NCBI GenBank assembly: GCA_017457085.1
Contig: JAFTID010000048.1
Span: 4,893-68,892, forward strand
Length of the DNA: 64,000 nucleotides
Direction of reading: 5' to 3'
From: Phascolarctobacterium sp.
GTDB lineage: Bacteria; Bacillota; Negativicutes; Acidaminococcales; Acidaminococcaceae
A program made the position numbers and the translations under genes. Each line of letters begins with the position of its first letter. Position 1 is the first letter of the stretch. The notes beneath the pieces were generated by a model. It ran no database searches. It worked only from the letters and a program-made list of their open reading frames with translations, and had not been told where the DNA came from. Of this stretch, positions 111 to 59,757 are shown one piece after another.

Positions 111-141
111 TTGACAATATACTGGGTATATACTTTACAGT
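111..141 (+). promoter_or_regulatory. Regulon-type promoter P1 (19-bp spacer with dyad)
   Basis: TTGACA-ATATACTGGGTATATACTT-TACAGT. The spacer is exactly 19 bp and carries TATATA half sites. An A-rich tract lies upstream. Confidence 0.5.
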
Positions 142-544
142 ATGATTAAGGAATAAATCAATATTTCGCATAAGAAACTCAGGATAAAGAAAGTTAAAGA
201 GGTTCACAACATCACAACATCTTTAGCTGAAAACTGATTGTTTCAAAATAGCGTTAGCTACCTGCTTACGACGGAAGATGTGAAAACTGCTAATTCTGTT
301 TATGTGAGAGTGGCAAAATTACAGTGGAAACATTTCTTGATGCGAACTTCATGCTTGCCGAAGCTAGCATCTACTTTCCCAAGTGACAGGGCGAAATATT
401 GGTTTCCTTTGACAAAGAGAACAAGCAACTTGGACACTTGCTTACGCATATAATAAATGCTGTTCTGATAGAATTGAAATTTACTCTTCTACTTTCTCCT
501 CTCCTCTCTCAAAGTGCATTCTGTAGGGGTGCAGCAATGCCAAG

Positions 545-592
545 ATAAGATGCGTGTTACCTATCGTGGGTAATAGGCATCTTATTTTTTTG
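545..592 (+). terminator. Intrinsic terminator closing the P1 transcript
   Basis: ATAAGATGC...GCATCTTAT stem with an inner CCTAT/ATAGG extension, followed by a T7 run. Confidence 0.6.
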
Positions 593-625
593 CGTAAAAC
601 TATAAGCGTACCCTTGGCGTACCTC

Positions 626-656
626 TTGACCGTAAAGCAACTATATAGTTTATCAT
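626..656 (+). promoter_or_regulatory. Regulon-type promoter P2
   Basis: TTGACC-GTAAAGCAACTATATAGTT-TATCAT, 19-bp spacer. The -10 ends 72 nt upstream of the start codon at 728. Confidence 0.55.
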
Positions 657-727
657 TAGTAGCAAATAAAAAGCTTGGCTAAAAAATTTCCTTTTAATTT
701 TTATGATTACTATTTAAGGAGACGGTT

Positions 728-1813
728 ATGTCTGAACAAATTTGCACCCTTTCTACAGGTGATAAGGTTTATTTTTACGATAAAAGCATTGTGATTTTCT
801 TTAATGGCAAGCGTAAAGTGTTGAGCACCTCCGTTTATAATGGAGGCTACCACGAAGATTACGTTGCTGTTTATAACTACGATGCTAAGCAAGGATCCGG
901 TATGCCCTGCGAAGTTTTGGCAGATACTTATGTTGAACACATGCGTTTGATTTCCAAACGTCTTGCCTTAAATCCAGATATGGTTACTGGAATGGGAACG
1001 GCGGCGAGCATGGAGAATGCTGTCGTAGAAAAAATGAGTTATAAAGATTTAACTGTTACTGCTATCGTAACAGGTGGTATTGAAACAAATGGTGGGCGTG
1101 TTGGTGACCCTTCAGATTATTACATGCCTATGGAGCGTTTGGGAAAATGCGGGACCATAAACATTATGCTAGTTCTGGATTGTGATATGCCACCGGGAGC
1201 ATTGGCTCGTGCGCTGGTAACTTGCACCGAAGCAAAGACTGCTGCCATTCAAGAACTGCTTGCCGGAAGCAATTATTCCAATGGCTTGGCGACAGGAAGC
1301 GGTACAGACCAGACAATCATTGTTGCTAACCCGGAAAGAGATTTGTATTTTGAAACAACGGGTAAACATTCTAAAATTGGTGAGATGATTGGCAAGGTCA
1401 TTATCAAAGCTGTGAAGCGCGCTTTAGAAAAACAAGCTGGTTTAAACGCAGAATTTCAGCATAACGTGTTCCGTCGCTTAAAACGTTTTGGCATTTTACC
1501 GGGAACAATGTGGAGCGAATACCAAGAAGTTACCAATGCAGAAGTAAAGCCTGTTTACCTTCTCGCTGCTGAAAATTTGGCTAAAGATAAAATGATGCTA
1601 ACATTTACTTCATTATATATACATCTGCTGGATCAGTTTTTATGGAAGCTTATTAGCGCAGAAGAAATGCAGACGGCAGGACAAAGCTTGCTTGATACAA
1701 TTGCTTCCTATTATAATGTAGGAAGTGAGCAAATTCAGGAAGCGAACCTTGAGGGAATGTTAGCAAGCTGGAAAGTTTTGTTCAATAAAATTGTCGCTAC
1801 TAAAAGCGAATAA
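728..1813 (+). CDS. cbiZ: Adenosylcobinamide amidohydrolase-like protein (CbiZ family) with a C-terminal extension of about 120 aa
   Basis: 361-aa ORF with SD TAAGGAG upstream. Motifs STSVYNGG, GTINIMLVLD, TEAKTAAIQEL and ATGSGTDQ resemble CbiZ. Recognised by eye only. Confidence 0.55.
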   Translation: MSEQICTLSTGDKVYFYDKSIVIFFNGKRKVLSTSVYNGGYHEDYVAVYNYDAKQGSGMPCEVLADTYVEHMRLISKRLALNPDMVTGMGTAASMENAVVEKMSYKDLTVTAIVTGGIETNGGRVGDPSDYYMPMERLGKCGTINIMLVLDCDMPPGALARALVTCTEAKTAAIQELLAGSNYSNGLATGSGTDQTIIVANPERDLYFETTGKHSKIGEMIGKVIIKAVKRALEKQAGLNAEFQHNVFRRLKRFGILPGTMWSEYQEVTNAEVKPVYLLAAENLAKDKMMLTFTSLYIHLLDQFLWKLISAEEMQTAGQSLLDTIASYYNVGSEQIQEANLEGMLASWKVLFNKIVATKSE

Positions 1814-1825
1814 GCAGGTATATAT

Positions 1826-2867: not shown

Positions 2868-2898
2868 TTGACTGTACAATTGCTATATAGGCTAAAAT
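2868..2898 (+). promoter_or_regulatory. Regulon-type promoter P3
   Basis: TTGACT-GTACAATTGCTATATAGGC-TAAAAT, 19-bp spacer. Confidence 0.5.
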
Positions 2899-3037: not shown

Positions 3038-4987
3038 ATGAAAAAGATGACTAAAGCAATGCTTATGACTGCTCTTATTTGTGGCACTATGTATTGCGGC
3101 GCAGAACCTGTTCATGCAAATGAACTGGATACCTTTGCTCTTGACGAGTATGTAGTAACTGCTGCGAGAACCGAAACCAAATTGGTGGATACTCCGGCAA
3201 ATATCACCATCGTTGGTGCAGATGAAATTGAAAGCAGACATTATACTAATGTAGCAGAAGTTTTGAAAGATGTACCTGGTGCTACTGTTTCAGATAATGG
3301 TAATGGTACTAGTGAAAAATGTGTTTATTTAAATGGTGATGAACGCGTATTGGTATTAGTCGATGGCAGAAGAGTAAATTTTGATTTAGGTACAAGTACT
3401 GGTAGAGCTGGTTATGATATGAATCAGCTTCCTGATGTTAGTCTTATTGAACGTATTGAGGTTTTAAAGGGGGCTGGCGGTGCTCTTTATGGTTCTGAAG
3501 CTGTTGGTGGTGTAATTAACGTAATTACCAAAAAGGCAGATATGAATTATGGCAAAGTATCTCTTGCTTTTGGTTCTAGTGGTGCAGAAGATATGAATGC
3601 AATGTATTCCTTTAAAAAAGGTAAAACTGGTGTAAGTGTATCTGCTTCTAAATACAAACAAGATTACTACAAATATAGGGATTATGCGTCTGATACTACT
3701 AAAAGATGGCCTGTACCAGTAGATTTTGAAAATGAGAAAGTTTCTTTAAAAGTTGATCAACAACTTAATGATGAAAGTAATCTAACCATAGGATATGATT
3801 ATAGTAAATTTGAAGGTCTTGGTACATACAGTATAAGTTATCCAAATACACCAATTGATAAGAGAACTGATAATATTTACGCTAAATATGATTGGACTCT
3901 TAATGAAAAAGACCAAGGTTACTTGCAATTTTATCATAATGAGTTAGATTATTATTATCAAGGTGGAATGGAAGAAAAAACTAATGGCATTGATTTGCAA
4001 CAAGCTATTTCTTTGTCTGATAATAATAAATTAGTTGTAGGCACTTCATGGCGTAAGGTTGATGTTAAAACAACTCCTGAGAATGGTAAGATAGGTTATG
4101 ATGAGAGTATTGATAATTTTGCAATTTTCATTAATGATAATTGGGAATTTGCTCCGACTTGGACTTTAAACGCTGGGGTGCGATATGATGAGCATAGTGA
4201 AGCTGGTAATGAAACAACATTTAGTACTGGCTTAAATAAAAAATTTAATGATGTAAGTCACGCATATATTAACTGGGGACAAGTATTTAGAGCACCTACT
4301 ACAGATGATATGTATACTTTTAGTGGACCTAGTGGTGGTTATGGTGGTACCTATGGTAATCCTAATTTAAAAGCAGAAACAGGTGATACTTGGACTATTG
4401 GTTATAATGCTCAAGTAAGTGCAGTTACCGACATTGGTATCAGTTATTTTGAAAGCGACTTAGAAGATGCGCTTGATTGGGTTCCTGACTATGATGGCCC
4501 GTATTACGGAAAAGGTTATGATTATTATGCCCAAAATATTAATAAGCAAGAGAAAAAAGGTTTAGAATTAACATTAAATCATAAACTTAGCGATAAATTT
4601 GATTTAAATGCATCCTATACTTATGTGAATGTAAAAAATGATGAAGGCGAAGGTTTTGTGAAAGATCCTAACTATGTTCCTAATATGTATAGATTAGGAT
4701 TAAAATATCATGATGAAAAGTGGAATGCTGATTTATTCCTACGTTATGGAACTGGCTGTTCTACTTCTTATAATGCAGCAAGTTGGGCTTATCCATACCT
4801 TGAAAGCAGTTATCTAACTGTAGATATGGCATTAACTTATAAAGCGAATAATAATCTCAAAATTTTTGCAAAGGGATACAATTTGTTTAATGAAGCGTAT
4901 GCAGAAAGAGGCGGTTCCTATGGTAGTTACTATAATAACCCCGCACAATCTCGTCGCTTCTTAATTGGTGCTGAATACTCCTTCTAA
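3038..4987 (+). CDS. TonB-dependent outer-membrane receptor 1
   Basis: 649 aa with a signal peptide and a TonB-box-like DEYVVTA. Plug motif IEVLKGAGGALYGSEAVGGVINVITK. C-terminal aromatic end ...GAEYSF. Confidence 0.9.
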   Translation: MKKMTKAMLMTALICGTMYCGAEPVHANELDTFALDEYVVTAARTETKLVDTPANITIVGADEIESRHYTNVAEVLKDVPGATVSDNGNGTSEKCVYLNGDERVLVLVDGRRVNFDLGTSTGRAGYDMNQLPDVSLIERIEVLKGAGGALYGSEAVGGVINVITKKADMNYGKVSLAFGSSGAEDMNAMYSFKKGKTGVSVSASKYKQDYYKYRDYASDTTKRWPVPVDFENEKVSLKVDQQLNDESNLTIGYDYSKFEGLGTYSISYPNTPIDKRTDNIYAKYDWTLNEKDQGYLQFYHNELDYYYQGGMEEKTNGIDLQQAISLSDNNKLVVGTSWRKVDVKTTPENGKIGYDESIDNFAIFINDNWEFAPTWTLNAGVRYDEHSEAGNETTFSTGLNKKFNDVSHAYINWGQVFRAPTTDDMYTFSGPSGGYGGTYGNPNLKAETGDTWTIGYNAQVSAVTDIGISYFESDLEDALDWVPDYDGPYYGKGYDYYAQNINKQEKKGLELTLNHKLSDKFDLNASYTYVNVKNDEGEGFVKDPNYVPNMYRLGLKYHDEKWNADLFLRYGTGCSTSYNAASWAYPYLESSYLTVDMALTYKANNNLKIFAKGYNLFNEAYAERGGSYGSYYNNPAQSRRFLIGAEYSF

Positions 4988-6429: not shown

Positions 6430-6460
6430 TTGACACAATAGCAACTATATACCTTATCAT
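6430..6460 (+). promoter_or_regulatory. Regulon-type promoter P4
   Basis: TTGACA-CAATAGCAACTATATACCT-TATCAT, 19-bp spacer. Confidence 0.5.
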
Positions 6461-6513: not shown

Positions 6514-6536
6514 TATTTTTGGAAGGTGTTGTAGTT

Positions 6537-7514
6537 ATGGGAAAAGATTTCAATAAAGTTTTTGGAGCCATCAAATTTTTGCTGGTATTTGTAATTTGCG
6601 TAGGCGTTCTGCTTTGCACAGGCTGTTCTAAAAAAGAAAGCACTACTGAAATTTTAAAAGAAGGTGGCTACACTGTAACGGACTTTACCAACACGAAGCT
6701 TACCTTTTCAGAAAAACCACAGCGAATTGTATCGATGTCTATTGGTACTGACGAGATACTTCTAGATTTGGTACCACTAAACAGAATTTTAAGCGTTACT
6801 TATTTGGCAGATGATGGTGGTATTTCCAATATCGTTGAGCGTGTAAAAAGCATTCCTAATCGTACCCACGGTAATACTCCTGAAAGCGTAATTGGTCTTA
6901 ACCCTGATGTGGTACTTATTTCTGACTTCTTCCCTCCCGAAAGTTATCAGACCTTGCGGGAAATGGGGATGAAGGTGTACGTTTACAAGACTCCTTCTAA
7001 TTTTGAAGAGATTAAGGCTTCAATCTTAGAGCTTGCCCAAGTTGTAGGTGAGCTGGAAAAAGGCAAGCAGATGGTTGCGGAAATGGATGCTCGCATTCAA
7101 AAGGTGCAGAAAAAATTAGGAGACATTAAGGAAAAGCGCAAGGTTCTCTTCATGCACGCAATGGGAGCCTACTATTCTCCGGACGGAACCTTTAGCGATA
7201 CTTGTCGCCTTGCCGGCGTGGTAGATGTTACCCAAAGCTTGAACTATTCCCAAACCTGCACTCTTTCTCAAGAAACCATAGTGCAGTTAAATCCGGATAG
7301 CTTCGTTATTGGCGATTGGAACTTTGATGGGGAACATAGTCCTGAAGATTTAAAGGCAGAGCTTTTATCCAACCAGTCTTATATGACGACCAATGCTGGT
7401 AAAAATAAAAGCATTATTGTCATTCCATCAGCCCACCTTCTGACTTGCTCACAACAATTCGTTTTAGGAGTGGAGGATATGGCGAAAGCCGCTTATCCTG
7501 AAAAATTCCCTTGA
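6537..7514 (+). CDS. ABC-type periplasmic substrate-binding protein (FecB/BtuF-like, iron-siderophore/heme/cobalamin class), orphan
   Basis: The ATG at 6537 is preceded by GGAAGGTG, whereas the track start at 6519 is TTG. Signal peptide with a CTGC lipobox-like site. KPQRIVSMSIGTDEILLDL and the C-terminal AKAAYPEKF are shared with the PBPs at 12284 and 35572. Confidence 0.8.
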   Translation: MGKDFNKVFGAIKFLLVFVICVGVLLCTGCSKKESTTEILKEGGYTVTDFTNTKLTFSEKPQRIVSMSIGTDEILLDLVPLNRILSVTYLADDGGISNIVERVKSIPNRTHGNTPESVIGLNPDVVLISDFFPPESYQTLREMGMKVYVYKTPSNFEEIKASILELAQVVGELEKGKQMVAEMDARIQKVQKKLGDIKEKRKVLFMHAMGAYYSPDGTFSDTCRLAGVVDVTQSLNYSQTCTLSQETIVQLNPDSFVIGDWNFDGEHSPEDLKAELLSNQSYMTTNAGKNKSIIVIPSAHLLTCSQQFVLGVEDMAKAAYPEKFP

Positions 7515-7541
7515 CTATATAACTACTATATAGTGTATAGT
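7511..7541 (+). promoter_or_regulatory. Regulon-type promoter P5 (perfect 8+8 dyad)
   Basis: TTGACT-ATATAACTACTATATAGTG-TATAGT, with ACTATATA-N5-TATATAGT perfect. The stop codon of the PBP gene lies inside the -35. Confidence 0.6.
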
Positions 7542-7575
7542 GTAGCTTACCAAATAATATAAAGAGGTGAAAATT

Positions 7576-7893
7576 ATGACCTGTACCCATCCGAAATATG
7601 AACTTCCCAACGATCCCCATGCTAAATATCGCTATGAGAGCGCTATGAAACATGTGGAAGCTGCTAAAGCTGCTGGTAAATCTAGCGAAGAAATCCATGC
7701 TATCTTTAAAAAAGTTATGGAATTTGATCCGAAAAACATCGATGCTATTCCCAATGACGAAGCTCATGCAAAATATCGTAGTGCAATGGTGCACATGCAA
7801 AAAGCACTTGCCAACGGTAAAAGTGTAGAAGAAGCTCACGAAATTTTTGAGAAAATTAAAAGCGGCAATACCTCTGGTCACTGTAAGCAATAA
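7576..7893 (+). CDS. Small cytoplasmic His/Cys-containing protein with an internal tandem duplication, function unknown
   Basis: The ATG at 7576 follows SD AAGAGG by 8 nt. Two repeats of about 45 aa (PNDPHAKYRYESAMKHVEAAKAAGKSSEEIHAIFKKV and PNDEAHAKYRSAMVHMQKALANGKSVEEAHEIFEKI), with an N-terminal CTH and a C-terminal GHC. Confidence 0.6.
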   Translation: MTCTHPKYELPNDPHAKYRYESAMKHVEAAKAAGKSSEEIHAIFKKVMEFDPKNIDAIPNDEAHAKYRSAMVHMQKALANGKSVEEAHEIFEKIKSGNTSGHCKQ

Positions 7894-7944: not shown

Positions 7945-8790
7945 TTATTTCTTTTTAACATTGAGGAAGATTTTATTAATGTATTCGTTGGTGTCCTTAT
8001 AGAACAAGTGGTTTTCAATGGTGAGTATGTAAATATCACCACTGGCTTCTAATTCGTTTAATTCCATAAATTTGTTGATTATATCTACAAGCTTAGGGAA
8101 GTTTTGGTAGAAGGTACCTTTAAAATAAATTTCCAGATATAATCCGGCAGGAATTTTTATCATGGACTTTGCTTTATGTTTAGGTGTGTTCAGAACAAAG
8201 GAGAAGTAAGCTTTCGTGGGATGGTAGTCTCGTTTTACAAACAAGTCATCTTGGGAGATTATCCAACCAACGTGACGTTCCAGAGATTTTTTGTTGTGGA
8301 AAGTATGTTGGGCATGCTTTGTAAATAAAACTACCCTGTCTTTACCAGTATCTTTGCTGTAAACGGGGGTAACCTTCATCAAGCGTTCTTCTTGGAATGT
8401 AAGCAAAGGCTTGAAAAAAACGAAAGGTCTCTCGCATTTTGCAATGTCGTTGATGGCTTCTAAAGATTTTATGATGGCTTGGTTTTCTTTGATGATAGCC
8501 ATACATTCTTTTTCTTTGCGGGCAACCAAGTCAATAAATTCATTTTTGCTACGGTTTTCAAGATAAGTTTTTATATCAGGTATGCTGATATTGAATGAGC
8601 GCAAGTTAACAATGATTTCTAAATCTAAATATTGTTGGATGGAATAATGCCTATAGCCTTTTTCGCAAATAAAATCGGGTGAGAGTAGGCCAATTTTGTC
8701 ATAATACAACAAGGTTTGCTTAGAGATACTAAAAAGATTTGCCAGTTCTCCTGCTGTGAAATAGGCATCGTCAGAATTATTGTTGCTCAT
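7945..8790 (-). CDS. MerR-family transcriptional regulator with a C-terminal GyrI-like effector-binding domain (BmrR/TipA-like architecture)
   Basis: 281 aa. The N-terminus YFTAGELANLFSISKQTLLYYDKIGLLSP...GYRHYS is a MerR HTH, followed by a coiled-coil linker. The C-terminus IPAGLYLEIYFKGTFYQNFPKLVDIINKFMELNELEASGDIYILTIENHL resembles GyrI-like domains. Confidence 0.8.
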   Translation of the reverse strand: MSNNNSDDAYFTAGELANLFSISKQTLLYYDKIGLLSPDFICEKGYRHYSIQQYLDLEIIVNLRSFNISIPDIKTYLENRSKNEFIDLVARKEKECMAIIKENQAIIKSLEAINDIAKCERPFVFFKPLLTFQEERLMKVTPVYSKDTGKDRVVLFTKHAQHTFHNKKSLERHVGWIISQDDLFVKRDYHPTKAYFSFVLNTPKHKAKSMIKIPAGLYLEIYFKGTFYQNFPKLVDIINKFMELNELEASGDIYILTIENHLFYKDTNEYINKIFLNVKKK

Positions 8791-8807: not shown

Positions 8808-8838
8808 TTGACTATATAACCAGTATATAGTTTAAAAT
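8808..8838 (+). promoter_or_regulatory. Regulon-type promoter P6 (perfect 8+8 dyad), divergent from the MerR gene
   Basis: TTGACT-ATATAACCAGTATATAGTT-TAAAAT, 19-bp spacer. It starts 18 bp from the merR-like start codon on the opposite strand. Confidence 0.6.
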
Positions 8839-8860: not shown

Positions 8861-8889
8861 ATTGTATCATATTCATAATCGTATTGCAA
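8861..8889 (-). promoter_or_regulatory. Candidate canonical promoter of the MerR-like gene
   Basis: On the - strand: TTGCAA, 17 bp, TACAAT. The resulting transcript would read through the P6 dyad before the start codon at 8790. Confidence 0.4.
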
Positions 8890-8907
8890 AATGTTAGGGG
8901 GATTTTT

Positions 8908-9714
8908 ATGAAAAAGATTGCTATATATGGTAAGGGTGGCATTGGTAAATCTACAACGACGGCAAATGTGTCTGCTGCATTGAGCGAACAAGGCTTTAAG
9001 GTTTGCCAAATTGGTTGCGACCCTAAAAATGATTCCACACGTTTGTTGCTGGGAAGAATTTGCACCCAAACAGTTTTAGATGTTGTACGTGATAAAGAAG
9101 AAGTTTTAGCGGAAGATATTGTGCATATTGGCTACAACGGAATTAAGTGCGTGGAAGCTGGCGGTCCTGAACCGGGAGTTGGCTGTGCAGGACGTGGTAT
9201 TATTGTTGCTTTAGAAAAACTTCGTTCTTTAGACGTCATCGAAGACGAAGATGTTTTGCTTTACGACGTTTTAGGTGACGTGGTATGTGGTGGCTTTGCC
9301 GTGCCTATTCGTGAAGGCTACGCTACTGATATTTATATTGTTTCTTCCGGTGAGCTAATGAGTCTTTACGCTGCCAACAATATTGCCAAAGGCGTGAAGC
9401 GTTTTGCTTTGCGTGGTGGAGTTCGATTGGGCGGCATTATCGGTAACAGCCGTAACACTCCCAACGAAAAGAATTTGTTGGAAGAATTTGCCAAACGTTT
9501 AAATACAAAACTGATTGCCTTTATTCCCCGTGATGTTGTTGTGAATAAGGCAGAAAATAATCGCCAAACTGTTTTGCAATACGCACCGGAAAGTGAGCAA
9601 GCACAAATCTATCGTAATTTGAGCAAGGTGCTTGTGGAAAATGCAGAGCTTTCCGTGCCTACGCCAATGACCTTTGAAGAATTAGAAAAGCTGGTTGAAA
9701 AATATGGGAATTAA
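8908..9714 (+). CDS. Nitrogenase iron protein-like ATPase (NifH/BchL/CfbC family)
   Basis: The ATG at 8908 follows AGGGGGA. P-loop GKGGIGKST, switch I CDPKNDS, and both 4Fe-4S cysteines in GVGCAGRG and DVVCGGFAVP. Confidence 0.9.
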   Translation: MKKIAIYGKGGIGKSTTTANVSAALSEQGFKVCQIGCDPKNDSTRLLLGRICTQTVLDVVRDKEEVLAEDIVHIGYNGIKCVEAGGPEPGVGCAGRGIIVALEKLRSLDVIEDEDVLLYDVLGDVVCGGFAVPIREGYATDIYIVSSGELMSLYAANNIAKGVKRFALRGGVRLGGIIGNSRNTPNEKNLLEEFAKRLNTKLIAFIPRDVVVNKAENNRQTVLQYAPESEQAQIYRNLSKVLVENAELSVPTPMTFEELEKLVEKYGN

Positions 9715-10996
9715 AACGAAACGTTTTATCAATATTAGAAAAAGTTGTAGCTGCAGTATGCCCGGCGTGTGGCGAGCAGTTGCTTATATGGATGGTGTGG
9801 TTGTAATTTTTCACAGTCCCCGTGCGTGCGCGCATATTGCTCGTACCATGGATATCAATACTCATTATCGTGCTATGGGTGATGGTAGAAAAGAAGAACG
9901 TGCTTCCGTACCCTTGCTGTCTAGTCAATTAGAAGAAAAGCATTCCATTTTTGGTGGCATAGATAGATTGAAGAAGTGTATTGCCTACGCTATAGAAAAG
10001 TACGCTCCTCAATGCTTGGTACTGGGTGGTTCCTGCGTTGCCGGTGTAATTGGTGACGATGTGGAAGCTGTAGCCAAAGAAGTTGAGGAAGAATATAATT
10101 TGCCAGTCATTACGGTGGATAGCTACGGATTTTTAGATGGGGAATTTTTTGAAGGCTACTTTGAAATTACTTATAAATTGATTGATAGATATTTATATCC
10201 GCAAAAGTATATTCCCAAAACAGTTGTGCTGATTGGGGATAATGGTGGGCCGTGGGGACATTACGCCACAGAGGTTACAAGAATTTTAAAAGCAATGGGG
10301 GTTACTGTCATTGGACAGTTCCCTGGCTATATTACTCTTGAAGATTTACCGAAGATTACCAGTGCGGAAGCAATGGTAGTTTTAGGTGGTAAGGGGAATA
10401 CTCACGAAGGTCTTGAGTGTTTGACGAAGCGTTTGCAGGAAAAATTTGGCTTTAAATTTTTGCAGGACGTCTATCCTGTTGGCTGGCAAAGAACTCAGCA
10501 ATGGATTATTGAGATGGGCAAGCTGTTAAATTGTGAAGAACAGGCTGAAGAAGTTTTGCAGGCAGAGCGCCTTCTTATGGAGAAAAGCTTGGCACAATTT
10601 TTACCGGTTACTAAAAATAAAAAGGCTACTCTTTGCATTGGTAGGTGGTTGATGTACTTCCATCCAGAATCTATGCTGGGTGTGATTAATGCCTTGGAGT
10701 TAGATTTACAGGGAATAGTTTTGCTGGATGCGTTGGAAGCAGGCTATTTTGACGAGATGGTAGGCGCTTTGCGGAAGTATACCGATGTTCCTATTTACTC
10801 TAATCTTGACGGGGAACACTTACTGAAAGAAGCAGATGTAGTGCTGACAACTCACGAATTGCAGGATAAAAACTTAAAGCAGGTTTTCCTGCCCATGCTT
10901 CCCAAGGTGGGAACCCTCGGTGAAATTGAATTTATGCAAGTTATTTACAGAGTGCTGTGCAGTAAGCACAAGGGCGGAGGTTTAGTTTATGTATAG
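9695..10996 (+). CDS. Nitrogenase component-1-type oxidoreductase, alpha-like subunit (NifD/NifE/BchN family)
   Basis: 433 aa, overlapping the nifH-like stop (alternative start at 9704). Cys pattern C20-x24-C45 plus GGSCVAGVIGDD, typical of this family. Confidence 0.8.
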   Translation: MKNMGIKTKRFINIRKSCSCSMPGVWRAVAYMDGVVVIFHSPRACAHIARTMDINTHYRAMGDGRKEERASVPLLSSQLEEKHSIFGGIDRLKKCIAYAIEKYAPQCLVLGGSCVAGVIGDDVEAVAKEVEEEYNLPVITVDSYGFLDGEFFEGYFEITYKLIDRYLYPQKYIPKTVVLIGDNGGPWGHYATEVTRILKAMGVTVIGQFPGYITLEDLPKITSAEAMVVLGGKGNTHEGLECLTKRLQEKFGFKFLQDVYPVGWQRTQQWIIEMGKLLNCEEQAEEVLQAERLLMEKSLAQFLPVTKNKKATLCIGRWLMYFHPESMLGVINALELDLQGIVLLDALEAGYFDEMVGALRKYTDVPIYSNLDGEHLLKEADVVLTTHELQDKNLKQVFLPMLPKVGTLGEIEFMQVIYRVLCSKHKGGGLVYV

Positions 10997-12287
10997 CAAT
11001 AACCAATGGGGAAATATTTGTCATAGAGTTGACTGCTGTGCATTAAGTGGAGCTGCTGCCTTTGTGGCAGGCATTCCTGATGCAGAAATTTTGGTGAATG
11101 GTCCGTTGTGGTGTTACTTTTACGCATTACGTACTTTGGAACACGCTAAGTACGATATGGGGGAGCGCTTTCACGATTGTCAGCCCGATAATAATGCAAT
11201 TGTCTATGGAACGGAAAAGTTTTTGACGGAAGCTTTGAAGCGTTTGCTGGATAGTGGTCGTAAGCCTTCACTTTTATTGGTAGAAAATAGCTGCTCACTT
11301 AGTTTGATTGGCGATGATTTAGCAGGCATCGTTCGTAAAATGGAACTGCCTTATCCCTTTGTAACCATGGATTGCGGTGGCTTGGTTGGTGGTTTTGCCG
11401 AAGGTTATACCAAAGCGGCACTTGCTGTTTTGAAAAAATTTGCTGTTGAAAAGGTTGAAACCGTAGAAAACAGAGTAAATGTTTTAGGCTTAAGTGATTT
11501 TTATTACAACGGTATTGCTGATAGAAATGAAATAATTCGCTTGCTGACTAAGGCAGGCTACGAAATAAATGCTGTTCCCGGTGCGGGAAGCAGTTTGGAA
11601 AATTTACAAAAGATTGCTCGTGCTAAGCTAAACATTGTCTGCAACGAAGAGCTTGGCTTGCAATTGGCACAGTGTTTGGAAAAACGCTTTGGTACTCCTT
11701 ACGTTGTAGCAGGTATGCCTTACGGAATTGAGGACACTAAAAATTGGTTAACACGTATTCACGAAGCACTGCCTTGTGAAAATTTACAAGCAGTTTTTGA
11801 TGAAGGCACTGCTCAAATGGAACGCTTAACTGCTAAAGAAAATGACTATCGTGGTGTGTGGGGAAGCCTTTGGTTTGATAAGGTTATTCTTTCGGCAGCG
11901 GGGACCCAAGCTTTGTGTATGGCGCAGGCTTTACGTAACGAGTGGTTAGATATAGGAGAACTTACCGTAATTTGCCAACACGAGGTCAAAAGTGCAAACT
12001 ACTGCGACGTGGCAGATAAAGTTCTGGTCACTGGTAAAGATGTTGATGAAATTGAAAGGCTCTTCCAAAATGCAGAAGACGTATTACTTTTTGCGAGTAG
12101 CAGTGAAGCCAGCAATTTACGTCGTCGCGGGGCAACTTTTTACAGCTGTAACATTGCCTATCCATCAGCTGACGAAGTTTTACTGACGGAAACTCCCTTT
12201 GTGGGAATCAAGGGTGCGGCGCATATGCTAGAGCGTTTGTGGAATGTATATATTAAAAAACAAATGGATGAGCAGGTGAATAAATGA
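10989..12287 (+). CDS. Nitrogenase component-1-type oxidoreductase, beta-like subunit (NifK/NifN/BchB family)
   Basis: 432 aa, overlapping the upstream gene by 8 nt. Cys pattern C17-x24-C42 plus ENSCSLSLIGDD. Confidence 0.75.
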   Translation: MYSNNQWGNICHRVDCCALSGAAAFVAGIPDAEILVNGPLWCYFYALRTLEHAKYDMGERFHDCQPDNNAIVYGTEKFLTEALKRLLDSGRKPSLLLVENSCSLSLIGDDLAGIVRKMELPYPFVTMDCGGLVGGFAEGYTKAALAVLKKFAVEKVETVENRVNVLGLSDFYYNGIADRNEIIRLLTKAGYEINAVPGAGSSLENLQKIARAKLNIVCNEELGLQLAQCLEKRFGTPYVVAGMPYGIEDTKNWLTRIHEALPCENLQAVFDEGTAQMERLTAKENDYRGVWGSLWFDKVILSAAGTQALCMAQALRNEWLDIGELTVICQHEVKSANYCDVADKVLVTGKDVDEIERLFQNAEDVLLFASSSEASNLRRRGATFYSCNIAYPSADEVLLTETPFVGIKGAAHMLERLWNVYIKKQMDEQVNK

Positions 12288-13255
12288 AAAGATTGTTATT
12301 AATCTGCTTAATGCTATTTCTGGTTTGTCTTACTGGTGGCTGTGGCACACAAGAACCAGTTAATAATTCTGTACAGGAGAAAGTTGCTTACGAGGTTATT
12401 GATGAAGCTGGCAGAAAATTGACCTTTACAGAAAAACCTCAGAGAATTGCTTCCCTTACCTATGGCACAGATGAAATATTAACAGATTTAGTAGACACGA
12501 AACGAATTGTTGGCTATAGTCGTTGGGCTGGTGACCCGGAGATTACATTTATCACTAAGGAACAGGCACGTAAAGTTGGAAGGAAGCTAGAAGAAAATAC
12601 AGAAGCTGTTTTATCTGTTAAGCCTGATTTGGTGGTGGCGACCACTGCTTCCAATAGCGAAGTAATACATTCACTAGAGGCTTTAGGGTTAAAGGTGTAT
12701 TTAGCCGGAAGACCTAAAAACTATGAACAAATGAGAGTTAAGGTTTTAAAGCTTGGTGAAGCCGTTGGGGAAAAAGCCAAGGGTGAAGAGTTAGTAAAAC
12801 AAATGGACGAACGCATTGCCAAACTGGAAAGTAAGCTTTGCAAAATTCCTGATGATAAGCGTAAAACTGTTGTTGCCTTTAATTTTATTTCAGCTATGGG
12901 GCGCAAGGGTGATTTGATTGATAATATGCTAAACATGGCTCACGTTATCAATGGTGTTGCGCAAATACCTAATGAATTTATGACTAGCTATGTTAGCAAA
13001 GAGCAAGTAGTACGTATTAATCCAGATATTTTTCTTTTACCTACATGGAATTATGACAATAGACAGGATATAGAAGGATATCTTAATAGAGTACAGAATG
13101 ACCCTGCCTATAAAGACGTTAAAGCCATAAAAAATAATCAAATCAAATTTGTTTCGGATAAATATCGTTATGTAGCAAGTCATCATATTGTGGATGCGGT
13201 TGAAAATTTTGCTAAAGCTGTTTATCCGGAATATTTTAGAGGTGAAAAATATTGA
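12284..13255 (+). CDS. ABC-type periplasmic substrate-binding protein (FecB/BtuF-like), probable lipoprotein
   Basis: 323 aa with signal peptide ...LTGGCG. KPQRIASLTYGTDEILTDL and AKAVYPEYF match its paralogs. ATGA overlap with the upstream gene. Confidence 0.85.
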   Translation: MKRLLLICLMLFLVCLTGGCGTQEPVNNSVQEKVAYEVIDEAGRKLTFTEKPQRIASLTYGTDEILTDLVDTKRIVGYSRWAGDPEITFITKEQARKVGRKLEENTEAVLSVKPDLVVATTASNSEVIHSLEALGLKVYLAGRPKNYEQMRVKVLKLGEAVGEKAKGEELVKQMDERIAKLESKLCKIPDDKRKTVVAFNFISAMGRKGDLIDNMLNMAHVINGVAQIPNEFMTSYVSKEQVVRINPDIFLLPTWNYDNRQDIEGYLNRVQNDPAYKDVKAIKNNQIKFVSDKYRYVASHHIVDAVENFAKAVYPEYFRGEKY

Positions 13256-14289
13256 TTGTTAAAAGAAAGAATAGTGGTCTTGCGCTGATTGTGTTAGGTA
13301 TTGTTCTGGTAATAGTTGCTTTAGGCTCACTAACCTTTGGGCAAATTGATGTGCCTTTGGAAAGTACGCTGGCAATTATTTGTGGAAAGTTAGGCTTACC
13401 TTTTATTAATGAAGGAAACTTCACCAAGGAACAGCTTGCTGTCATTTGGTTTATCCGTATGCCACGTATGCTGGTTGGCTTGCTTGTAGGTGCAACCCTT
13501 GGTATTTCCGGTGCAGTAATGCAGGGCATTTTTAGTAATCCCTTGGCAGACCCCGGTCTAATTGGCGTTTCTGCAGGGGCGGCGACTGGTGCAGTACTTT
13601 CTATTGCGCTGGGTAGTGCTACAAGTAGTATGTACACTATGCCCGCTTTTGCCTTTTGCGGAAGTATTTGCGCCGTGTGCTTGACAGTTTTCCTTGCCAT
13701 GCGCAATGGCAAGATTCCTGTAATGACCTTGCTCCTCGCTGGTGTTGCCGTTGGCATGCTTTTAGGCGCAGTAACTTCTGGTTTGCTTACCTTTATGAAT
13801 GAGCAAAAGCTACAACAATATTTGTTCTGGATGGTTGGCGGTCTTGACTATCGTCGTTGGGAACATGTTTACCTTGCAGTTGGCCCCGTCCTGACAGGCA
13901 TTTTCATAATGCTTTTGATGGCTCGTCATTTAAATATCTTAGTACTTGGGGAAACAGAAGCCAAGGCTGTGGGAATGCCTGTTACTGCTTTCCGCATGGG
14001 TTTGCTTTTCGTATCTGCCATGACTACGGCAACTTCTGTTTGCGTAAGTGGTAGCATTGGTTTTGTTGGGTTGGTCATTCCCCACATGATGCGCATGCTG
14101 CTTGGTCCGGACCATCGCGTGTTGTTACCGGCAAGTGCTCTTGGTGGCGCTATGTTTTTAGTTTTGTGCGACACTTTGGGCAGAATAGTTATTCCTCCCT
14201 CCGAAGTTAGGGTAGGTATAATGACTGCGCTTTTAGGTACACCCTATTTCTTATATTTGCTTAGAAGAATGCAAAAGCAATTCTTCTAG
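13252..14289 (+). CDS. FecCD/BtuC-family ABC import permease
   Basis: 345 aa, polytopic. Contains GISGAVMQGIFSNPLADPGLIGVSAGA and a C-terminal GIMTALLGTPYFLYLL, both typical of FecCD permeases. Confidence 0.9.
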   Translation: MIVKRKNSGLALIVLGIVLVIVALGSLTFGQIDVPLESTLAIICGKLGLPFINEGNFTKEQLAVIWFIRMPRMLVGLLVGATLGISGAVMQGIFSNPLADPGLIGVSAGAATGAVLSIALGSATSSMYTMPAFAFCGSICAVCLTVFLAMRNGKIPVMTLLLAGVAVGMLLGAVTSGLLTFMNEQKLQQYLFWMVGGLDYRRWEHVYLAVGPVLTGIFIMLLMARHLNILVLGETEAKAVGMPVTAFRMGLLFVSAMTTATSVCVSGSIGFVGLVIPHMMRMLLGPDHRVLLPASALGGAMFLVLCDTLGRIVIPPSEVRVGIMTALLGTPYFLYLLRRMQKQFF

Positions 14290-14302
14290 AATTGAGGTAA
14301 AA

Positions 14303-17300
14303 ATGAGTAAGATTTTATTTTTGACAAACGTTATCCGTCGTATGGGAATGATGCAGCAAACTGTGGAACGTTTGCAACGTGAGCAAAAGGTTAGCAATGA
14401 TTGTGCTTGCCATTGGATAACAGATCAAACCGTATGGGATAAAAAATGGGAAGAAAACCTGCGTACTACGGACGTTGTACTTTTAAAATGGATGGGTAGC
14501 GGTTTGGACACACCTTTTCTGAAAAAATTAGTACAGTTTTTAGATGCACGCAAAATTCCTTATTACATAGATGCTGCTGGTACTAATGAAGGCGAGCTGA
14601 AATTTGGCTTCACCCCTGAACAGCTGGCAGCCTTGAAAAAATATACTTCCTTTGGCGGCGAGCGTAACTACTATAATTTGTGGCAGTACCTTGACCAATG
14701 CTTGGAAGGTAAAGGCAAAGAGATTGAAGCACCTGACCCGATTCATTGGTGCGGAATTTATCACCCCCGTGCGAAAAAGGTTTATACAGATTTGGCAGAA
14801 TACCAAGCGGATTTCTGCGATGCTTCTAAACCGACTATTGGTATGCTTTTCTATCGTGACGAATGGGTTTGGGGAGATTTAACTTACCAAAGCGCAACCA
14901 TCGAAGAAATTGAAGCCCAAGGTATGAACGCAATTTGCGTATTCAGTAATGGTATGCCCATTGAAGAAATGGGGATGCCTAGCTTGACAAAAGTTTTTGA
15001 TAGCTTCTTCTGCAAAGATGGAGTGCCTGCCATTGATGCTCTTATCAATGTAATGAAATTTTCATTGAGCAGTAGCGGTACTATTACCGTAGACTATTTC
15101 AAAAAATGGAACGTGCCTATTTTGGCAGGCTATACCATTATGACTGACTATGATGAATGGAAGGAAAGTTTCGAGGGGATGAATCCCATGGAAGTTTCCA
15201 TTGCCATTTCCTTACCAGAATTTGACGGAACCATCCACGGCGTACCCATTGGTTACAAAAAAGTTTTGGAAAATGGTGACGTGCGTTACTTGCCCATCGT
15301 AGAACGCGTTCAACGTATGGTAAGTAAGGCTCGCAAATGGGCAAGCCTGCGCCGTAAGGCTAATGCAGATAAAAAAATTGCTATTATCTTCCATAATTAT
15401 CCGCCCCGTAATTCCAATATTGGCAGCGCCCTTGGCTTGGACACCATTGAAAGTATCCGTCGTGTGTTGGTTGCAATGAAAGAACGTGGCTACAAAGTGG
15501 ATAGTATTCCGGAAGATACTAAGGAATTTATCAAGGAGCTTACCTCCAACGCTACCAATGACAAGGCGTTGCTGACAGAAAAACAAATTGCCGAAGCCCA
15601 AAAGATTACAGGCGCTGAATATAAAAAATTCTTTGCTACCATTGAACCCAAGGTACAAGCACAACTTATTAAAGATTGGGGCGAAGCACCGGGAAGCGTT
15701 ATGGAATATGATGGCGACCTGTTGGTACCGGGAACTATGAACGGCAATGTTTTTGTTACGGTGCAACCACCTCGTGGTTTTGGTGATGATCCTAGCAAAA
15801 TTTACCATTCTCCTTACTGCGCACCTACTCATCATTATTTAGGGTTCTATCGTTGGGTGCGTGATATTTGGCAAGCAGATGCTGTTGCTCATATTGGTAC
15901 TCATGGTTCCTTAGAATGGTTGCCAGGCAAAAACGCAGGTCTTGACTGCACCTGCTATCCTGATTTGGCATTAGGTGACCTGGTTAATATTTATCCCTAT
16001 AATATTGCGATTACCGGCGAGGGTATTCAGGCAAAACGTAGAGGTGCTGCCTGCTTGATTGAACATTTGCCTGCTCCTCAAAGCAAGGCAGATGTTTATG
16101 ACGAGCTGGAAGAACTGGAAAAAATTATGGATGAGTACGTGCATTTTGAAACTACTCAACCGGAAAACTTGCCTAGTTTAGAAGCACTGGTAAAAGAAAA
16201 GGTTGTTGCTGCCAATTTGCAGGATGAAGTTGAATATGACGAAAGCAAACCTTTTGGCGAATATGTAATGGCATTGCACAACTACATTACAGATTTAAAA
16301 AACCTTGAAGTACACGTTGGCTTACATATTTTGGGGCAACCTCCTGTTGAGGAAGGCTTGACTGAATATTTGTGGATGCTTACCCGTCTTAACAATGGTG
16401 ACATTCCTAGCTTGAGCCAAGCGTTGTCCCAATACTATGGCTTTGATTACTACTATTTGCTGGAAAACAGCAGCTTGATTTACGAACCACTGAATATTAC
16501 CTACGCAGTATTGCTTGATAAAATTACAGACCAAAGCCAAGAGATTATCAAGATTTTGCAGGACAAAGATTTTAGTGCAGTAGCCTTGCAGGAAGTTTTG
16601 GCATTGACTTGGGTACAGGAAGGCAGTGCTGAATTTAAGGAACAGCTGGAAAAAGTTTGCACTTATATTTGTGAAACAATCTATCCTAATTTACAGCTCA
16701 CTACCCAAGAACAAGACAATATGCTTCGTGGCTTTGAAGGTCAGTATGTAGAACCTGGTCCTTCCGGAGCACCCACTAGTGGTTGTGCAGATTTACTGCC
16801 TACTGGTCGCAACTTTTATGGCGTAGACCCGCGCACCTTGCCAACTCCTGCGGCATGGGAAATTGGCAAAACCTTGGGTGACCAAGTTATTGAACGCTTT
16901 ATTGCGGAAGAGGGTCACTATCCAGAAAATATCGGTATCGTATTGTGGAGTGGGGCCAATATGCGCAGTCATGGTCAATGCGTGGCAGAATTCCTCTATC
17001 TGATGGGCGTACGCCCCATTTATCAAGCAGGCAGTATGCGTGTTAATGGCTTGGAACCTATTCCTTTGACAGAACTGCGCCGTCCCCGCATTGACGTTAC
17101 TGCAAGAATAAGTGGCTTATTCCGTGATACCATGCCTACCATTATGGAACTCCTTGACCAAGCAACGCTGCTTGTTGGTGGTTTGGACGAAGATTTGGAA
17201 CTGAACTATGTGCGTAAGCATTTACTGGCAGATAGTGCAGAGCTGGAAGCTGAAGGTATGAGCAAGGAAGATGCTTGGCGACAAGCTGCCTTTAGAATTT

Positions 17301-19117: not shown

Positions 19118-19148
19118 TTGCGTATATAGGAAGTATATAGTTTATAAT
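19118..19148 (+). promoter_or_regulatory. Regulon-type promoter P7
   Basis: TTGCGT-ATATAGGAAGTATATAGTT-TATAAT, 19-bp spacer. Confidence 0.55.
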
Positions 19149-30253: not shown

Positions 30254-30284
30254 TTGAGTATATAACAACAATATAGTTTAGAAT
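30254..30284 (+). promoter_or_regulatory. Regulon-type promoter P8
   Basis: TTGAGT-ATATAACAACAATATAGTT-TAGAAT, 19-bp spacer. Confidence 0.55.
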
Positions 30285-32630: not shown

Positions 32631-32675
32631 ACAACACCCTCGTCAACCTTGTTGGTTGGCGGGGGTGTTTGTTAT
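32631..32675 (+). repeat. Hairpin repeat copy d
   Basis: ACACCCTCGTCAACC-loop-GGTTGGCGGGGGTGT followed by TTGTTAT. Confidence 0.7.
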
Positions 32676-32764: not shown

Positions 32765-32795
32765 TTGCGTGTATAGTAACTACATAGTTTACAAT
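32765..32795 (+). promoter_or_regulatory. Regulon-type promoter P9
   Basis: TTGCGT-GTATAGTAACTACATAGTT-TACAAT, 19-bp spacer. Confidence 0.5.
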
Positions 32796-38531: not shown

Positions 38532-38562
38532 TTGAGTATATACCAACTATATAGTTTATAAT
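38532..38562 (+). promoter_or_regulatory. Regulon-type promoter P10, heading the ECF/cbi operon
   Basis: TTGAGT-ATATACCAACTATATAGTT-TATAAT, 19-bp spacer. Confidence 0.6.
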
Positions 38563-58380: not shown

Positions 58381-58911
58381 ATGAAGGACGGCGGCTTGAT
58401 TCACATTTATTGTGGTGACGGTAAGGGGAAGACCACTGCTTCCTTAGGTTTGGCAGTACGTTGTAGCGGTCACGGGAACAAGGTGCTTTTTGTGCAGTTC
58501 CTTAAGGCGTGGCGCACAGGGGAGCTGAATACCTTGGAACTGCTTCCTAATATTGAAGTGTTGCGTGCTAAGGAAACTGCTAAATTCACTTTCCAGATGA
58601 CTGCAGAAGAAAAGGCGCAGGTTCTAAAAGACCACATGACTTTATTTGAAACTGTCAAAAATAAATGTGTTGCTGAGAAAATTGACCTGCTTATTTTAGA
58701 TGAAGTTGTAGGTGCTTGTGACAGAGGTGTCTTTAATAAGGAAGCACTCTTAGAGTTTTTAAGAAACAAGCCTGAAAATTTAGAGGTTGTTATGACGGGA
58801 CGTAATCCTTTTCCAGAATTAGTAGAGTTGGCAGATTATGTCTCTGAAATTTGCAAGCGTAAGCATCCCAAAGATAAGGGGATTATGGCGCGCGTAGGAA
58901 TAGAAAGGTAG
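58381..58911 (+). CDS. cobO: Cob(I)yrinic acid a,c-diamide adenosyltransferase
   Basis: GLIHIYCGDGKGKTTASLGLAVR and ILDEV. Confidence 0.85.
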   Translation: MKDGGLIHIYCGDGKGKTTASLGLAVRCSGHGNKVLFVQFLKAWRTGELNTLELLPNIEVLRAKETAKFTFQMTAEEKAQVLKDHMTLFETVKNKCVAEKIDLLILDEVVGACDRGVFNKEALLEFLRNKPENLEVVMTGRNPFPELVELADYVSEICKRKHPKDKGIMARVGIER

Positions 58912-58919
58912 CGATAAAA

Positions 58920-59549
58920 ATGGAATTACAAAATGTTTTGCCTGCGGATATTGAAAAACGCAGTATGGAAATTATTGGCGAAGAATTGGGACAAATCCAC
59001 ATTGACGAAGAAAAGCTGGATATTGTAAAACGTGTTATTCATACTTCTGCAGATTTTGATTATGCACGCACCCTGTTGTTTTCTGAAGGTGTAGTTGCAA
59101 AAGCTTTGGAAGCTTTGAAAAAAGGTGCGACCATTGTAACCGATACAAACATGGCTTGCACCGGTATTAACAAAATGGGTTTGAACAAGCTGGGGGCGAA
59201 AGCAGTATGCTTCATGGCAGATGCAGATATTGCTGCCCGTGCCAAGGAAGCTGGTTCCACCCGTGCAGCTGCTTGCATGGAAAAGGCTTGTGAAATTGCA
59301 GGACCTGTTATCATTGCCGTAGGCAATGCTCCCACTGCCCTGGTTCGTCTTGACGAATTGGTAAAGGAAGGCAAAATTAAACCGGAGCTTGTCATTGGTG
59401 TACCTGTTGGTTTCGTAAACGTAGTTGAATCTAAAGAAATCATTATGCAAACCGGCGTGCCCTACATCGTAGCGCGCGGTCGCAAGGGTGGTAGCAATGT
59501 AGCTGCTGCAATTTGCAATGCTCTTATTTACAAATTGATAGAGCGCTAA
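58920..59549 (+). CDS. cbiC: Cobalt-precorrin-8 methylmutase
   Basis: VIHTSADFDY and GNAPTAL motifs. Confidence 0.85.
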   Translation: MELQNVLPADIEKRSMEIIGEELGQIHIDEEKLDIVKRVIHTSADFDYARTLLFSEGVVAKALEALKKGATIVTDTNMACTGINKMGLNKLGAKAVCFMADADIAARAKEAGSTRAAACMEKACEIAGPVIIAVGNAPTALVRLDELVKEGKIKPELVIGVPVGFVNVVESKEIIMQTGVPYIVARGRKGGSNVAAAICNALIYKLIER

Positions 59550-59570
59550 AATTTGATTTTAAAATATTAA

Positions 59571-59608
59571 AAGTCATTGGGAACATTAAATTCCTAATGA
59601 CTTTTTTA
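59571..59608 (+). terminator. Intrinsic terminator ending the cbi operon
   Basis: AGTCATTGGGAA...TTCCTAATGACT followed by TTTTT. A second weak AT hairpin plus a T12 run lies at about 59670-59705. Confidence 0.65.
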
Positions 59609-59726
59609 CTTTATGAGGTTGTAAATAATTGAACACGAGTATTCGAACAAGATGCTAAGCTCATTACATAAAGAAATATTAATTTCTTGCCTATTTTTTT
59701 TTTTTGGATAAAAATTACAAAAAAGC

Positions 59727-59757
59727 TTGCGTATACAATAACTATATAGTTTATAAT
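59727..59757 (+). promoter_or_regulatory. Regulon-type promoter P11
   Basis: TTGCGT-ATACAATAACTATATAGTT-TATAAT, 19-bp spacer. Confidence 0.55.

Follow-up and report, generated by a model that had tools for sequence, protein, structure and literature searches.

The genes for vitamin B12 and other corrinoids are the textbook case of riboswitch control, and a stretch of DNA from Phascolarctobacterium sp. raises the question of whether a protein can govern them instead. The stretch comprises 64,000 nucleotides (assembly GCA_017457085.1, contig JAFTID010000048.1, positions 4,893 to 68,892) and is called the window throughout. It holds eleven copies of one 31-bp promoter-like element, and an earlier note on this DNA had taken them for MerR-type promoters linking the window into a single regulon; a protein regulator would then tie together about 45 genes. 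We consider it likely that the eleven elements are indeed MerR-type promoter-operators, the dyad of which would be bound by a dimer, either of the protein that gene 7945-8790 encodes or of one of its close paralogues, and that they control tetrapyrrole/corrinoid units. Gene assignments are from Pfam and NCBIfam profile matches, and the coordinates of all features are collected in Table 1.

A probable promoter-operator element with a fixed 19-bp spacer

All eleven coordinates, each on the + strand, proved correct when the sites were printed, and the sequence at every one of them reads TTGnnn, 19 bp, TAnnnT. The stricter form that had been claimed for every site, TTGnnT-19-TAnnAT, stood as to its 19-bp spacing (11/11) but not as to its literal hexamers, which only seven of the eleven sites fit, while TTGnnn-N19-TAnnnT fits them all. 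Position 6 of the -35 is A or C at sites 111, 626 and 6430, and the -10 reads TAnnGT at sites 111 and 7511. The bare pattern TTGnnT-N19-TAnnAT was not enriched in the window either (8 matches versus 5.3 expected), and it was set aside in favor of a position matrix. The 31-column log-odds matrix built from the eleven sites gave 33.0 to 45.6 bits at its own sites, whereas the next-best position in the window scored -1.6 bits on the + strand and the best on the - strand 5.0 bits; these best - strand scores are the palindromic cores of the eleven sites themselves. The 10-mer core ACTATATAGT, with at most one mismatch, occurred 8 times in the window, compared to 2.07 ± 1.45 expected, and none of 100 shuffles reached 8. 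The statistical signal is thus the dyad and not the hexamers.

The dyad has an 8-5-8 layout, ACTATATA-N5-TATATAGT, and occupies positions 4 to 24 of the 31-mer with its axis at position 14, so that it fills the spacer and overlaps the final 3 nt of the -35. Both 8+8 dyads described earlier as perfect, at 7511 and 8808, are so. The hexamers are near consensus (-35 TTGAC, -10 TAnAAT), and positions 23 to 25 vary among the window sites, reading GTT, CTT, CCT, GGC or GTG. Upstream of the element, the A-tract plus GC that had been reported for most copies turned out to be less pronounced, four or more A in a row being present at 7 of the 11 sites but the dinucleotide GC at only 4; a C lies directly 5' of TTG at 9 of them. 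The distance from the element to the start codon or leader is always 30 to 140 nt. For the housekeeping sigma factor a 19-bp spacing is 2 bp too long and about 70 degrees out of phase, and the operators of merOP and bmr are centered at about the same place as the dyad described here, roughly 13.5 to 14.5.

In the sister-species loci and the same-genome flanks that were scanned, we found no sign that the motif occurs at a large fraction of promoters regardless of function, which would have spoken against a regulon. Two 21-kb loci of sister species (42 kb) contained no matrix match above 2.1 bits. Contigs identical to the window sequence extend it on both sides, and the left flank harbors a twelfth site (L198:4661, 38.2 bits), some 4.6 kb to the left of where the window begins and before a TonB-receptor gene, with nothing of 10 bits or more in the further 4.6 kb past it; the 8.4 kb of the right flank likewise held nothing of 10 bits or more. 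Because there is no match in 42 kb of sister DNA and only one extra site in the flanks of the same genome, the element does not serve as a general promoter in this organism. As had been pointed out, the motif is missing from the two AAA_14/DUF4143 genes and the AlbA_2 gene.

The predicted regulator, its relatives and its effector domain

The regulator gene is the only MerR-family open reading frame (ORF) in the window, and the flanks add none. Pfam MerR_1 matches residues 11 to 79 of the protein, and no Pfam domain was matched downstream of this helix-turn-helix (HTH). A profile of 17 homologues nevertheless aligned over its full length with Bacillus subtilis BmrR (residues 2 to 275; E values of 4e-17 to 2e-16), and more weakly with BrlR, EcmrR, SkgA, Mta and TipA. 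The AlphaFold (AF2) model, with a mean predicted local distance difference test (pLDDT) score of 87.1, consists of the HTH, a long helix at residues 81 to 117 and a beta-rich C-terminal domain. Its top Foldseek matches were BmrR-DNA-drug complexes and the BmrR-RNA polymerase complex 7ckq (E value of about 1e-16, template modeling score of 0.63 to 0.70), followed by the GyrI-like domains of EcmrR (C-terminal domain), CTR107 and SbmC; structure 6xl5 was also matched. The protein thus has the architecture of the BmrR subfamily, namely, a winged HTH, a long dimerization helix and a C-terminal GyrI-like SHS2-repeat domain, and is of the BmrR/GyrI-like type rather than a metal- or redox-sensing MerR. 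The promoter side agrees with a MerR-type system as well, with near-sigma-70 hexamers 19 bp apart, a dyad inside the spacer and a divergent MerR-family gene next to it.

A scan of species-representative genomes for homologues of the regulator yielded 79 loci, each of at most 22 kb (L-numbers are locus labels). Homologues occur in Phascolarctobacterium and other Acidaminococcaceae, one of them 97% identical to the window's regulator (L005, from the Phascolarctobacterium metagenome-assembled genome [MAG] RGIG8666, water-deer colon). When the window matrix was applied to these loci, almost all had the element on the strand opposite the regulator, 17 to 80 bp from its start codon. This adjacency was seen in Phascolarctobacterium, Succiniclasticum, Dialister, Sporomusa and a Veillonellaceae MAG, and also at homologues of only 23 to 29% identity in Clostridia and Desulfobacterales (e.g., TTGACTATATAGTTACTATATACTTTATCAT). 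At the distant loci the element serves a multidrug and toxin extrusion (MATE) pump or an HlyD-AcrB pair, and the regulators there have GyrI-like Pfam matches. Three such loci from Clostridia and Desulfobacteraceae (L065:8479-10804, L069:8558-10726 and L076:5485-10795) combine a regulator of 23 to 27% identity, the same 31-bp element and a single divergent MATE or HlyD-AcrB pump. The pump-associated loci seem to represent the ancestral arrangement, and the regulon of the Negativicutes would have grown out of it by expansion.

With the two halves of the matrix left free to slide, the spacer was exactly 19 bp in 123 of 125 matches, a count that covers the window and 59 Negativicutes loci. The dyad axis lies at position 14 in every regulator clade; complementarity about this axis was 0.42 in paralogue clade C and 0.69 to 0.82 in the other four clades, compared to 0.02 to 0.30 for axes shifted by half a base pair. 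Sites at orthologous positions are kept across genera while their central 5 nt and their flanks drift. The genes downstream of the element also recur in Negativicutes: the nifH-like or radical S-adenosylmethionine (SAM)/periplasmic binding protein (PBP)/FecCD/CobN operon, a small His-rich protein, CbiZ, TonB receptors, binding proteins and ChlI-ChlD. This recurrence of element and targets is phylogenetic-footprinting support for the putative regulon and its predicted regulator. A metagenome scan with TTGACNNTANANNNNNNTATATAGTNTA was unhelpful for delimiting the regulon, as the 113 stretches retrieved were mostly ordinary AT-rich promoters with TATAAT in another register; only about 12 of the 113 are divergent from MerR homologues. 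Taken together, the type of protein, its colocalization with the motif, the fixed 19-bp spacer and the specificity of the element support the view of the earlier note that the elements are promoters of the MerR-activator type, here tied to the protein of 7945-8790.

In an alignment of the Negativicutes regulators with five pump-associated (clade D) relatives, the DNA-reading helix and wing were near-invariant across the clades that share the operator (ISKQTLLYYDK...GYRxY), which fits the shared operator. The C-terminal effector domains diverge between the clades. At the position of E253, the buried glutamate with which BmrR binds cationic drugs, the Negativicutes clade has Ile or Val (Y-(I/V)-L), whereas the corresponding SYE (Y-E253 in BmrR) is kept in three of the five pump-associated regulators (L065, L068 and L073); L076 is without it, and the L069 sequence is truncated at this point. 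The conserved GKxR, FHN, GW and (E/K)NH motifs are the Negativicutes clade's own. The divergence of the C-terminal domain and the loss of the BmrR glutamate indicate that the ligand class has very probably changed from that of BmrR. As a conjecture, the basic residues and the conserved His would suit an anionic, metal-containing tetrapyrrole. We infer that the effector may belong to the tetrapyrroles and be haem/porphyrin or an incomplete corrinoid, for instance cobinamide or a cobyrinate derivative. The signal may be a precursor, haem or porphyrin, or it may be unrelated to the cargo. Two other sensor types were considered and rejected: a CarH/LitR-like sensor, since neither Pfam nor NCBIfam detects a B12-binding domain and the fold of the C-terminal domain is GyrI-like, and a CoaR-like sensor, since there is no match to a CobH/CbiC-like domain and no C-terminal Cys-His-Cys motif in the sequence.

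Proposed mechanism and competing explanations

By homology with MerR, BmrR, CueR and EcmrR, the regulator would hold its promoters inactive or poor in the absence of effector. Binding of a small molecule to the C-terminal GyrI-like domain would lead it to kink and undertwist the 19-bp spacer, thereby bringing the -35 and -10 into register, and RNA polymerase would start about 7 nt past the -10. A sigma-70-type consensus scan predicted a promoter for the regulator gene itself, the transcript of which would cross the operator at 8838-8808. The 22 orthologous loci that were scored also have a promoter-like match 2 to 35 bp upstream of the operator, the hexamers and distance of which are retained in the closest relatives only. 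As this predicted promoter would fire through the operator, bound regulator would probably limit its own synthesis, which suggests autoregulation by roadblock or occlusion.

Counting the site left of the window, at least 12 units would be controlled. They would provide import of tetrapyrrole-type compounds through both membranes (TonB receptors, BtuF-like binding proteins, a FecCD permease and an ATP-binding cassette [ABC] ATPase) and a class-I chelatase (CobN with ChlID) together with an uncharacterized nitrogenase-like reductase and a radical-SAM enzyme. A resistance-nodulation-division (RND) pump, CbiZ for corrinoid salvage and CbiK would also belong to the set and, in the window lineage only, the whole cbi/cob operon. 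A tetrapyrrole effector would make the system one of substrate-induced salvage, and its likely origin would be in single-target activators of multidrug pumps that use the same operator.

The mechanism is canonical for MerR proteins and the conceptual surprise is accordingly limited; what is new is the variant effector domain and the large, functionally coherent putative regulon that partly replaces riboswitch control. BmrR with the bmr promoter of B. subtilis, as well as EcmrR of Escherichia coli, has the same three-part protein, a 19-bp spacer with the dyad inside it and the regulator beside its target, and distant members of the present family still control one divergent MATE or RND pump, some of them with the YE pocket motif. 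The window regulator is about 20% identical to BmrR, however, and would act on at least 12 promoters instead of one, through a different operator sequence and on genes of tetrapyrrole/corrinoid transport, salvage and biosynthesis rather than on an efflux pump alone. The promoters of merOP (Tn501/Tn21), CueR, ZntR and SoxR are alike in their near-consensus hexamers 19 to 20 bp apart, in a dyad placed slightly towards the -35 and in the divergent regulator gene, on which the operator can act as well. Here, a GyrI-like small-molecule pocket takes the place of the metal-binding loop or [2Fe-2S] cluster of MerR, CueR, ZntR and SoxR, and the promoter predicted for the regulator gene points towards the target promoter, with transcription crossing the operator, whereas in those systems the two are back to back within it.

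Other known regulators share targets or sensing with the present system. CarH/LitR proteins join a MerR domain to a B12-binding domain, CarH being a light-dependent repressor. CoaR of Synechocystis carries a MerR domain plus a CobH-like one for tetrapyrrole binding and controls one cobalt exporter (PMC11615248). Both are linked to cobalt/B12 physiology and are precedents for MerR proteins that read tetrapyrrole status, although their sensor domains are unrelated to that of the regulator described here. Cobalamin riboswitches act on the same target genes (btuB/cbi/cob), but here control would be exerted by a protein at initiation, ten of the eleven units being without a detectable riboswitch. 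PocR, an AraC-family protein that activates the Salmonella cob operon, is unrelated in fold and promoter architecture. Neither this regulon nor a GyrI-like MerR protein that senses tetrapyrroles was found described in the literature. The CobN-linked system is absent from a 2026 review of nitrogenase-like proteins, and no published function was found for it.

Several points weigh against one activated tetrapyrrole regulon. Some MerR-family proteins, such as CarH/LitR, only repress; corrinoid-induced de novo B12 synthesis would be a positive feedback, which is physiologically odd; and the cbi operon is in the regulon only in the window lineage. Furthermore, the regulator has paralogues in related genomes, namely, in MAG RGIG8666 (L005 and L037, the latter 46% identical) and in Phascolarctobacterium succinatutens (L013 and L057, about 12 kb apart), and sites such as 111 and 6430 (TATATAC) may answer to another regulator. 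A pure repressor, whether the same MerR-family protein acting in the way of CarH/LitR or an unrelated factor, would leave the empty site active, the 19-bp spacing doing nothing but accommodate the operator. Lying over the -35 and across the spacer is the classic position for a repressor; moreover, end-product repression suits B12 biosynthesis better than induction does, and the regulator gene's own leader contains the operator. We nonetheless regard this as improbable. Steric repression needs no fixed spacing, yet the 19 bp are kept across genera (123/125), and such a spacer would cripple an unassisted sigma-70-type promoter. In addition, the full-length alignment of the regulator is with BmrR, an activator with a solved RNA polymerase activation complex (7ckq).

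The paralogues bear on whether the eleven sites answer to one regulator. They could be divided among at least two BmrR-like paralogues with different ligands and overlapping DNA specificity and so form several small regulons, a possibility that we consider rather unlikely. Each paralogue lies beside its own motif-bearing TonB-receptor or binding-protein genes, the operator consensus being near-identical, and the window sites do differ at positions 23 to 25. However, the window and its flanks contain one MerR-family gene only; the paralogues hardly differ in recognition helix and wing, making cross-binding at least as likely as partitioning; and no clear operator subclass that tracks gene function was found. 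The claim of a single regulon fits the shared element and the single MerR gene of the window, but it is uncertain given at least one paralogue with a near-identical operator in a related MAG. It is highly improbable that an alternative sigma factor recognizes the motif or that it is a repeated mobile or repetitive extragenic palindromic (REP)-like element, even though the 31-mers are highly similar, share one orientation and lie in an island flanked by ISL3 transposase genes. The hexamers are those of the housekeeping consensus and the conserved part is a dyad in the spacer, where sigma factors do not read the DNA. The sites have unrelated flanking sequences, their position upstream of a start codon or leader is constrained, and orthologous positions are kept in different genera despite the drift described above.

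Beyond the reading of the eleven elements as MerR-type promoter-operators, we tentatively put forward a wider proposal, as a possibility rather than an expectation. A branch of the BmrR family in Acidaminococcaceae and other Negativicutes may have been retooled as a tetrapyrrole sensor (for a corrinoid intermediate or haem/porphyrin) and as master activator of an unrecognized tetrapyrrole-processing pathway made up of TonB/BtuF-type import, a CobN-ChlID chelatase or dechelatase, a nitrogenase-like reductase, a radical-SAM enzyme, CbiZ and an RND pump, displacing the B12 riboswitch at the cbi operon here. If so, the regulon would be a gene list for assigning a function to the orphan nitrogenase-like clade, and the ligand of the regulator a route to the substrate of the orphan nitrogenase-like/CobN/radical-SAM pathway. 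The motif offers a simple computational means of tracing the extent of the regulon in any genome of the Negativicutes, and the carriers are B12-dependent succinate users that abound in the gut and rumen (Phascolarctobacterium, Succiniclasticum and Dialister). The family would also exemplify how a one-target activator of a drug pump turns into the regulator of a multioperon metabolic regulon with its DNA specificity kept.

Riboswitch-like leaders and predicted transcription units in the window

Table 1. Positions of the eleven elements, the regulator gene and associated features in the window
Feature	Positions	Strand	Description
Site 1	111-141	+	TTGACA-19-TACAGT; 33.0 bits; predicted to drive a noncoding structured transcript of about 450 nt, strong terminator at about 545-595
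Site 2	626-656	+	39.8 bits; promoter-operator of cbiZ 728-1813 (Pfam CbiZ, 8e-55) and TIM-barrel gene 1826-2782
Site 3	2868-2898	+	33.5 bits; TonB-dependent receptor 3038-4987 (plug and beta-barrel domains)
Site 4	6430-6460	+	34.6 bits; BtuF-like periplasmic binding protein 6519-7514 (Peripla_BP_2)
Site 5	7511-7541	+	40.7 bits; perfect dyad, -10 TATAGT; small His/Cys-rich protein, ATG 7575 to 7893
Regulator gene	7945-8790	-	281-aa BmrR-type MerR protein: HTH, coiled coil, GyrI-like effector domain
Site 6	8808-8838	+	41.6 bits; perfect dyad; 18 bp from regulator start codon; operon 8909-19052
Predicted regulator promoter	8861-8889	-	TTGCAA-17-TACAAT, upstream TG; sigma-70-type consensus scan
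Site 7	19118-19148	+	40.9 bits; chlI-chlD-HlyD-AcrB (RND), probably including TonB receptor 26639-28522
Site 8	30254-30284	+	40.9 bits; secreted 183-aa protein 30329-30880
Site 9	32765-32795	+	40.2 bits; TonB receptor/185-aa protein/PBP/ABC ATPase/CbiK
Site 10	38532-38562	+	45.6 bits; 19-gene, 21-kb operon 38600-59549
Site 11	59727-59757	+	43.0 bits; leader RNA, 58-aa ORF 60061-60237, TonB receptor 60412-63102
Cobalamin-riboswitch-like aptamer	59825-60006	+	RF00174, 28.3 bits (gathering score 31.5), E = 0.0028, full model 1-189

Rfam at gathering scores gave no match in the whole window, which is unusual for 64 kb of B12 genes. Permissive filters detected one aptamer, about 70 nt downstream of site 59727, which is a probable cobalamin riboswitch although its score lies below the curated threshold; the unit of site 11 thus probably combines a MerR-type promoter with a riboswitch. 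The leaders of the other ten units, including those of the 21-kb cbi operon and of three TonB receptors, contained no riboswitch even in the permissive Rfam search. A permissive match to a miRNA family was rejected as spurious, being a repeated GC hairpin (see below).

In sister Phascolarctobacterium species (CbiD 81 to 83% identical), the cbi operon begins at cbiD and has no MerR element but an ordinary promoter with a 17-bp spacer, a conserved leader with a B12-box-like sequence, and a terminator. Upstream of cbiD, at L193:9700-9990 and L195:9740-9990, this leader includes ...ACGGTCCCGCCGCTGTG...AAGTCAGCAnCCAGCC... and the terminator. Rfam matched it only partially (AdoCbl, 18.9 bits). Judging from the B12-box-like sequence, it looks like a cobalamin riboswitch and may be a divergent variant missed by current models. 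In the window, the cbi genes are joined behind the ECF/ABC genes and therefore inherit site 38532. The ECF/cbi operon can thus be counted as a unit of the regulon here, as the earlier note had it, but this is specific to the lineage, and the cbi operon was rejected as a conserved member because the operons of the sister species start at cbiD without the motif. The sister operons also include a 233-aa TP_methylase (cbiL-like) between cbiD and cbiF (L193:11140-11841), an orthologue of which was absent from the 64-kb window (cbiD/cbiF junction at 47682); the de novo pathway here is incomplete unless cbiL is encoded at another place in the genome.

The units driven are those that had been listed before, with the exception of the TonB receptor 26639-28522, which lacks a separate site and comes last in the chlID-RND operon. 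The operon downstream of site 6 (8884-19052, + strand) comprises a nifH-like gene, two nifDK-like genes, a BtuF-like PBP, a FecCD permease, a 1,239-aa CobN and a radical-SAM/SPASM enzyme, and the arrangement of regulator, motif and operon is repeated in more than 40 loci. The nitrogenase-like system is thus tied to the class-I chelatase and import genes and is kept beside the regulator in many Phascolarctobacterium genomes. In the 21-kb operon of site 10, two genes for proteins of no assigned type, an energy-coupling factor (ECF)-type ATPase with its T component and an ABC exporter precede cbiD/F/G/H/J/ET/A/B, cobD, a PGM-like gene, cobQ, cobO and cbiC, all genes overlapping or being spaced by less than 20 bp. 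Several other pairings of motif and gene recur. CbiZ follows the motif also in L005, L007, L008, L011, L013, L016, L035 and L049, and ChlI/ChlD does so in Phascolarctobacterium faecium DSM 14760 (L048). Orthologous sites were found for site 3 in L005, L007 and L008 and for site 4 in L001 and L005 to L007. The true start of the TonB receptor of site 9 is at about 32869, the signal peptide beginning at codon 26 of the ORF, and in the left flank (L198:4661-9086) the TonB-receptor gene is followed, after a 240-bp gap, by a gene for a P-type ATPase with an HMA domain.

The small protein of site 5 (+ strand) has 105 amino acids, is cytoplasmic and contains two repeats of PNDxxHAKYR...SAMxH...GKSxEExHxIFxK, with Cys/His at both ends. 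Its pairing with the motif recurs in Phascolarctobacterium, Succiniclasticum, Dialister and Sporomusa, and the gene is a neighbor of that for the regulator in a range that extends from Phascolarctobacterium to Dialister and Sporomusa. Database matches were weak only (TPR-like and CMD); the protein may be a metal or tetrapyrrole chaperone. The RNA of site 1 (147-600) folds better than its shuffles (z = -3.7), and this region contained no convincing ORF and matched no Rfam family; the transcript may be a regulatory RNA or a leader of a new type. The secreted proteins encoded at 30329-30880 and 34927-35484 (+ strand) are paralogues of about 184 amino acids in which no known domain was recognized, the former with its own site and without a Pfam family, the latter inside the operon of site 9. 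They may serve in ligand capture at the surface or in the periplasm, in the manner of a hemophore.

The cluster of about 75 kb has ISL3-family transposase genes at either side (L198:3112-4595 and L197:19522-20925) and may therefore be a mobile or rearranged island. A GC-rich hairpin, CCCCGTCAACC...GGTTGGCGGGG, is present in four copies on the + strand, at 28608-28624, 30197-30225, 30903-30929 and 32633-32669. The copies bracket motif-less genes (AAA_14 and AlbA_2) and the small secreted-protein gene and may be shared terminators or scars of cassette insertion.

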